Shown here one piece after another: positions 160 to 329 of a stretch of DNA of 329 nucleotides; the first letter of the stretch is position 1; the number at the start of each line of letters is the position of its first letter. This stretch comes from Escherichia coli (lineage in GTDB: Bacteria; Pseudomonadota; Gammaproteobacteria; Enterobacterales; Enterobacteriaceae). The stretch is from the NCBI RefSeq assembly GCF_003334385.1, contig NZ_QOWN01000201.1, one strand, 5' to 3'. The notes beneath the pieces were generated by a model. That model saw only the letters and a list, made by a program, of their open reading frames with translations, did no database searches and was not told the DNA's origin. The translations under genes and the position numbers were made by a program.

Positions 160-329
160 ATACAGCATTTGCACTTGTTCTGACAGTTTTTCTTGTTTCC
201 GGAGAGCCAGTTGATATTGCAGTCAGTGTTCACAGGACAATGCAGGAGTGTGTGACTGCAGCAACCGAACAGAAAATTCCCGGTAACTGTTACCCGGTCG
301 ATAAAGTTATTCACCAGGATAATAACGAA
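156..329 (+). CDS. 5' portion of a DUF1482-family (YebW-like) small protein; continues beyond the 3' end of the window
   Basis: ATG at 156-158 is preceded by AGGA (144-147) with an 8-nt spacer, and frame 3 is open from 99 to 329 with no stop. Translation (58 codons): MNTAFALVLTVFLVSGEPVDIAVSVHRTMQECVTAATEQKIPGNCYPVDKVIHQDNNE. From memory, E. coli YebW (DUF1482) shares the pattern FALVL.V...G...DI.V.V..T...C.......I..G.C.P....I, including both cysteines (QEC and GNCYP here). The family call is recalled, not searched. Confidence 0.8.
   Translation, partial: MNTAFALVLTVFLVSGEPVDIAVSVHRTMQECVTAATEQKIPGNCYPVDKVIHQDNNE
218..260 (+). repeat. Inverted repeat TGCAGTCA (218-225) / TGACTGCA (253-260) with 27-nt spacer; potential mRNA stem-loop
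   Basis: Read directly: the two 8-mers are exact reverse complements. TGCAG occurs three times (218-222, 241-245, 257-261). Lies wholly within the downstream ORF; the large loop makes a stable hairpin uncertain. Confidence 0.35.
282..294. repeat. Perfect 13-bp palindrome GGTAAC-T-GTTACC (imperfectly extended to 279-297)
   Basis: Read directly: 282-287 GGTAAC, 288 T, 289-294 GTTACC are exact reverse complements. The flanks CCC/CGG extend the symmetry with one mismatch per side. It overlaps codons G-N-C-Y-P of the downstream ORF. The symmetry is certain; any function is unknown. Confidence 0.5.

Follow-up and report, generated by a model that had tools for sequence, protein, structure and literature searches.

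Hairpins in coding regions are known to control the lysis genes of phages, as in the case of the coat/lysis hairpin of MS2; such hairpins are conserved and sequester the start site or the ribosome-binding site. In E. coli, the lysis gene ydfD is encoded together with dicB, and both are parts of the DicA-repressed dicBF polycistronic transcript, which is processed by RNase III as well as by RNase E around dicF, upstream of the region studied here (PMC10448788). Nothing has been reported on processing sites in ydfD, and the ydfABC-dicF-dicB-ydfD transcript is reported to accumulate upon inactivation of RNase E (PMC10448788). The lysis protein YdfD of K-12 binds IspG, and lysis via inhibition of IspG has been shown for this K-12 protein alone; in K-12 this lysis is counteracted by DicB (PMC8835842). 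The dicB–ydfD junction is well studied, and the module is widespread in E. coli prophages.

We analysed a window of 329 nt, by which we mean the whole stretch of DNA under study. It spans the junction between dicB and ydfD in a Qin-like lambdoid E. coli prophage. The sequence shares 100% identity with a prophage region in strain ML35 of E. coli, and 96% with Qin, the cryptic prophage of K-12 MG1655. A match to the window is present in 4,001 of 5,426 complete E. coli genomes, and matches were also found in several temperate Escherichia phages. In ML35, ydfD is followed on its 3′ side by an intact exonuclease gene of ~2.5 kb (L001, 4440-6911) and then by the genes for an excisionase and an integrase. 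In K-12, an IS2 element has cut the counterpart exonuclease gene short (ydfE and adjacent remnants; L002, 3440-4207). Since the exonuclease gene is intact in ML35 and truncated in K-12, the prophage of the window is less decayed than the Qin prophage of K-12.

Both genes of the window lie on the plus strand. The first 159 nt contain the 3′ part of dicB, i.e. its last 52 codons and a TGA stop codon at 157-159, as seen from the translation and from the RefSeq annotation of the identical ML35 locus. Full-length DicB, a cell division inhibitor, matches the NCBIfam model NF049927 over residues 1-62 of 62 with 130.6 bits, above the cut-off of 100. According to translation, RefSeq annotation and Pfam, positions 156-329 contain the first 58 codons of ydfD; its product, a lysis protein of the DUF1482 family, has 63 amino acids in full. 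As NCBIfam has no matching model for YdfD, Pfam was used instead, and PF07358 (DUF1482) gave a full-length match (E = 4.1e-25, model positions 1-57 of 57). When translations were compared directly, YdfD of the window was 94% identical to K-12 YdfD. RefSeq names these proteins either 'DUF1482 family protein' or 'lysis protein YdfD', the latter for K-12, and the family appears to be confined to prophages of Escherichia and Shigella.

The dicB stop codon and the ydfD start codon overlap as ATGA at 156-159. A Shine-Dalgarno-like AAGGA can be read from the sequence at 143-147 on the plus strand, inside the end of dicB and 8 nt upstream of the ydfD ATG. The AAGGA and the CAATGA that follows were kept in 115 of the 118 distinct homologous junctions. 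This conservation of the overlap and of the AAGGA suggests that ydfD is translationally coupled to its antagonist dicB.

Inside ydfD lies a perfect inverted repeat of 8 bp, with a left arm TGCAGTCA at 218-225 and a right arm TGACTGCA at 253-260, both read on the plus strand, which are 100% complementary and have 27 nt between them. The first-pass annotation had pointed out this repeat about 60 nt into the coding region together with a third TGCAG inside the loop, and the description is accurate: the left arm begins 62 nt into ydfD (ATG at 156), and TGCAG occurs at 218, 241 and 257. The left arm runs from the third base of Ile21 through Ala22 (GCA) and Val23 (GTC) to the first base of Ser24, and thus reads (AT)T-GCA-GTC-A(GT), for Ile-Ala-Val-Ser. 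The right arm starts at the second base of Val33, continues through Thr34 (ACT) and Ala35 (GCA) and reads (G)TG-ACT-GCA, for Val/Met-Thr-Ala; a PstI-type palindrome, CTGCAG, at 256-261 lies partly within it. Two of the three TGCAG copies are simply the repeat arms read as xxT-GCA-Gxx, that is a T-ending codon, the Ala codon GCA and a codon starting with G. The third copy (241-245, plus strand) is located in the predicted loop and is read in another frame, as A-TG CAG of Met29 and Gln30.

The left arm sits within the most variable stretch of the YdfD protein family. This hypervariable stretch of DUF1482 comprises residues 21-28 (IAVSVHRT; window positions 216-239), and the residues that flank it are nearly invariant. 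For K-12 YdfD, an N-terminal domain (residues 1-28) and a C-terminal domain (residues 29-63) have been described, and the hypervariable stretch coincides with the boundary given between them (PMC8835842). Near the right arm, residue 33 (252-254) is Val (GTG) in the allele of the window and Met (ATG) in K-12 YdfD. The substitution falls immediately outside the 8-bp arm and, in the predictions for the hairpin described below, changes the inner part.

A repeat of this kind is no more than what chance and codon choice produce. When the window was shuffled 1000 times with its dinucleotides preserved, 17.1% of the shuffles contained a perfect inverted repeat of 8 bp or more whose loop did not exceed 40 nt, and 56.7% contained one when any distance between the arms was accepted. 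In a second control the YdfD protein was kept fixed and codons were redrawn at the frequencies found in 1,793 codons of neighbouring genes of the prophage; here, 16% of the resamplings contained a repeat that was as long or longer. Three copies of TGCAG specifically were rare in the shuffles (P = 0.008). Counted over all pentamers, four have at least three copies in the window, compared to about seven expected from the shuffles.

We then consider how the repeat may fold in the mRNA. The largest predicted local hairpin extends over 210-265 on the plus strand, in a fold of the 59-nt stretch 210-268 with a predicted energy of -16.6 kcal/mol. It has a 9-bp core that pairs 217-225 with 253-261, an outer helix of GUUG (210-213) with CAAC (262-265) and an inner helix of 231-234 with 249-252, and this extended fold is broken by one bulge and a large internal loop. 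The predicted probability of the stem was 0.33 in the window and 0.35 in dicB..ydfD, and rose to 0.63 when 90 nt of 3′ flank were added and to 0.71 in the 1,040-nt dicF-dicB-ydfD context; for the K-12 allele values of 0.46-0.80 were obtained. In all contexts the best structure containing the stem was 0-0.7 kcal/mol from the minimum free energy (MFE). The probability is however strongly dependent on the context, and sliding windows of 120-240 nt gave values between 0.001 and 0.998. The earlier proposal that the arms could pair thus holds in silico, with probabilities of 0.33-0.80 and at most 0.7 kcal/mol from the MFE, although the stem is not included in the MFE structure of the window itself. 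The stem is a predicted member of the ensemble, and the models suggest that in naked RNA the arms can pair into a moderately stable hairpin, which competes with alternative folds.

The stability of this hairpin is ordinary. Dinucleotide shuffles of the stretch 210-268 folded at -14.85 ± 2.68 kcal/mol compared to the observed -16.6 kcal/mol (z = -0.65), and 48 of 200 were as stable. Against synonymous resamples the local fold reached z = -0.9, with 18% as stable. When the best 59-nt window of the ydfD coding sequence was taken, 71.5% of the synonymous resamples were at least as stable, and the coding sequence as a whole was less structured than expected from such resamples (z = +1.13).

Two other self-complementary features were observed in the window. 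One is a long-range complementarity of 11 nt between 64-74 in dicB (AACAAGAGAAA) and 187-197 in ydfD (TTTTTCTTGTT), which encloses the ydfD start. This pairing is contained in the MFE structure of the window and has a probability of ~0.95 in alleles of the window type and ~0 in several other clades; for the pair 66/195 we counted C-G 59, U-A 31, U-G 9, C·A 9 and G·G 10. This complementarity is A/U-rich and allele-specific; it is probably fortuitous too. The other is a near-palindrome at 279-297, CCCGGTAAC-T-GTTACCCGG, in which 8 of 9 arm positions are complementary. It is located in the part of ydfD that encodes IPGNCYPV, the most conserved motif of DUF1482. Positions 292-294 within it are TAC in the window and TAT in most homologues, by which one G-C pair becomes G·U.

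For a comparison across homologues, 317 DUF1482 loci were collected from three E. coli genomes and from four scans of viral contigs seeded by members of the family. The scan seeded by the window's own YdfD returned near-identical copies only and was useless for covariation; the diversity was supplied by three further seeds, the divergent members P0081, P0044 and P0018. From these loci we derived 87 distinct alleles, which were aligned without gaps over their first 174 nt. Pairing of the arms was not kept across these 87 ydfD-family alleles: all eight pairs are formed in only 16 of them, and the stem is absent from the other 71. The group with the perfect stem is a common one, found at 101 of the 317 loci.

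In the sister clade (16 alleles), the left arm is of the same type and the right arm is at most one mismatch from TGGCAGCA, which results in Thr34Ala. Eleven of these alleles are exactly TGCAGTCA / TGGCAGCA and carry an uncompensated central A·A mismatch. The remaining 51 alleles are more divergent, with arms such as GGTTATTG / TGGCTGCC that form four to seven nominal pairs, mostly G·U, around two central mismatches. Of all 87 alleles, 59 cannot form one of the two central pairs and 47 cannot form the other. In every group with fewer than eight pairs the median probability of the stem was 0.00, even in the 59-nt local context, and the RNAalifold consensus (-2.44 kcal/mol, with a folding term of -0.72) dropped the central pairs.

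Column shuffles of the alignment gave at first sight a different picture. Paired cells amounted to 81.2% compared to 78.5 ± 0.8% in the shuffles, and the covariation score was 0.374 compared to 0.322 ± 0.012, with 0 of 500 shuffles as high in both cases. Sequences that are related may exceed every shuffle even when no structure is present. Slid controls gave 9-58% paired cells. We do not take the excess as support for covariation, since the structure came from one of the aligned sequences and the signal reflects one deep split, transitions that preserve G·U pairs, and a level of pairing that chance stems reach as well: other chance stems of at least 5 bp from the same reference sequence had 62-95% paired cells in the same alignment. 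Most of the retained pairs are G·U wobbles that arose from transitions. Double changes are frequent at one pair only, 218/260 (U-A in 36 alleles, G-C in 32), and this alternation is a single deep split between clades. Within the divergent clade, the same pair is G-C in 32, U·C in 13, G·A in 5 and U·U in 1, so that 19 of 51 alleles break it and none compensates.

Across the 87 alleles, no independent compensatory change was found beyond one singleton. In this allele (L280), a GCA>GCT change restores pairing with the TGGCAGCA arm and leads to 8/8 pairs. The identical change in another allele (L019) breaks the stem in its background. The occurrence of GCA>GCT in both stem-restoring and stem-breaking backgrounds is what neutral drift at third positions predicts.

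The arms were not depleted of polymorphism, and in every clade they were at least as variable as the remaining coding sequence. When the 16 arm columns were compared to the 158 others, variable columns made up 25% vs 9.5%, 19% vs 17% and 75% vs 46% in the three clades. Within the perfect-stem clade we found synonymous variants that break the stem, A221T (GCA>GCT) and G254A (GTG>GTA), and the arms also hold two non-synonymous variants. The distribution of these variants indicates that there is no purifying selection on the pairing of the arms.

Taken together, the repeat is very probably a by-product of the codon sequence of one ydfD allele group, made up of Ala, Val and Thr codons, and not a selected element. 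We regard it as ordinary because it falls within the expectation from chance and codon choice and is not kept in related copies of the gene. The codon runs of the left and the right arm would simply happen to be reverse complements of each other, and ribosomes would unwind the resulting hairpin inside the short ydfD reading frame, which is putatively coupled in translation to dicB. We infer that the repeat is without function. The suggestion that it could affect translation elongation or mRNA stability found no support, given the ordinary stability, the 71 of 87 alleles without the stem and the polymorphic arms; the fallback of the first-pass annotation, coincidence, is the reading favoured by the evidence.

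It is quite unlikely that the hairpin is instead a lineage-specific functional mRNA structure of K-12/ML35-type alleles, which slows down ribosomes or shields the mRNA from RNase E and in this way tunes YdfD relative to DicB. The stem does occur in the predicted ensemble with the probabilities given above and within 0.7 kcal/mol of the MFE, and the perfect-stem group at 101 of the 317 loci is a large one. Its stability does not exceed that of shuffled or synonymous controls, however, the closest sister clade lacks the stem and shows no compensation, and synonymous stem-breakers segregate within the clade, in arms that are more polymorphic than the remaining gene. Moreover, ribosomes that translate an mRNA easily open a stem of 8-9 bp with a loop of 27 nt. 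The biology of the operon would leave room for such a role: the build-up of the transcript without RNase E implies that mRNA decay matters here (PMC10448788), and since DicB opposes lysis by YdfD, the ratio of the two proteins could be under selection (PMC8835842). A more specific version, to which we give very little credence, would be that the hairpin arose recently in the K-12/ML35 ydfD alleles as a lineage-specific translation brake or RNase E shield, which lowers or stabilises the expression of YdfD relative to its co-transcribed antagonist DicB and helps the cryptic prophage to silence a toxic gene. If the stem were functional, it would add an extra post-transcriptional layer to the balance between a division inhibitor and a lysis protein.

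That the stem serves as a processing site for RNase III, or for another activity specific for double strands, in the dicBF polycistronic mRNA is extremely unlikely. Typical substrates of E. coli RNase III comprise roughly two helical turns, and the helix in ydfD falls far short of this: it has only 8-9 contiguous pairs, and the extended fold is interrupted by the bulge and the large internal loop. The stem is also not conserved among homologues. The operon transcript is indeed processed by RNase III, but its cleavage has been mapped upstream, to the 5′ terminus of the DicF species of 190 nt, and not to ydfD (PMC10448788).

As a DNA-level element, such as a site bound by a protein dimer, a signal for recombination or a cruciform, the repeat is hardly credible, for despite the perfect 8-bp inverted repeat and the overlap of the right arm with the palindrome CTGCAG, the half-sites of a dimeric protein are not typically 27 bp apart, no promoter-like site is nearby, the arms are not conserved in homologous prophages and the repeat is within chance expectation.

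Searches for other classes of elements covered both strands of the window. Scans for promoters and terminators found no site, and a permissive Rfam search returned only a snoRNA hit on the other strand (94-172) with E = 4.2, which we consider meaningless. An intrinsic terminator was rejected on account of the scan, the loop of 27 nt and the sequence that follows the stem, GCAACCGAAC.

Compared to the known systems, the ydfD repeat shares with intrinsic terminators and REP-like palindromes an inverted repeat and some G+C content; it differs from them in that it has no U tract, has a loop of 27 nt and is located inside a reading frame. It resembles the MS2-type hairpin in that it belongs to the mRNA of a small phage lysis gene, one that overlaps (ATGA) with the 3′ end of the gene before it, and in principle it could gate expression. 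In contrast to that hairpin, the ydfD stem is situated 62-104 nt downstream of the start, clear of the Shine-Dalgarno sequence and the ATG, and is not conserved. With the structures at which RNase III and RNase E process dicBF mRNA to make DicF, it has the same polycistronic transcript in common (PMC10448788), whereas the known sites are upstream around dicF and the ydfD helix is much shorter and gave no Rfam hit. From the fortuitous intragenic hairpins of bacterial coding sequences we found no difference: like these, the ydfD repeat is a short perfect stem made from ordinary codons, it is allele-specific, its stability is within the shuffled and synonymous range, and its arms are freely polymorphic.
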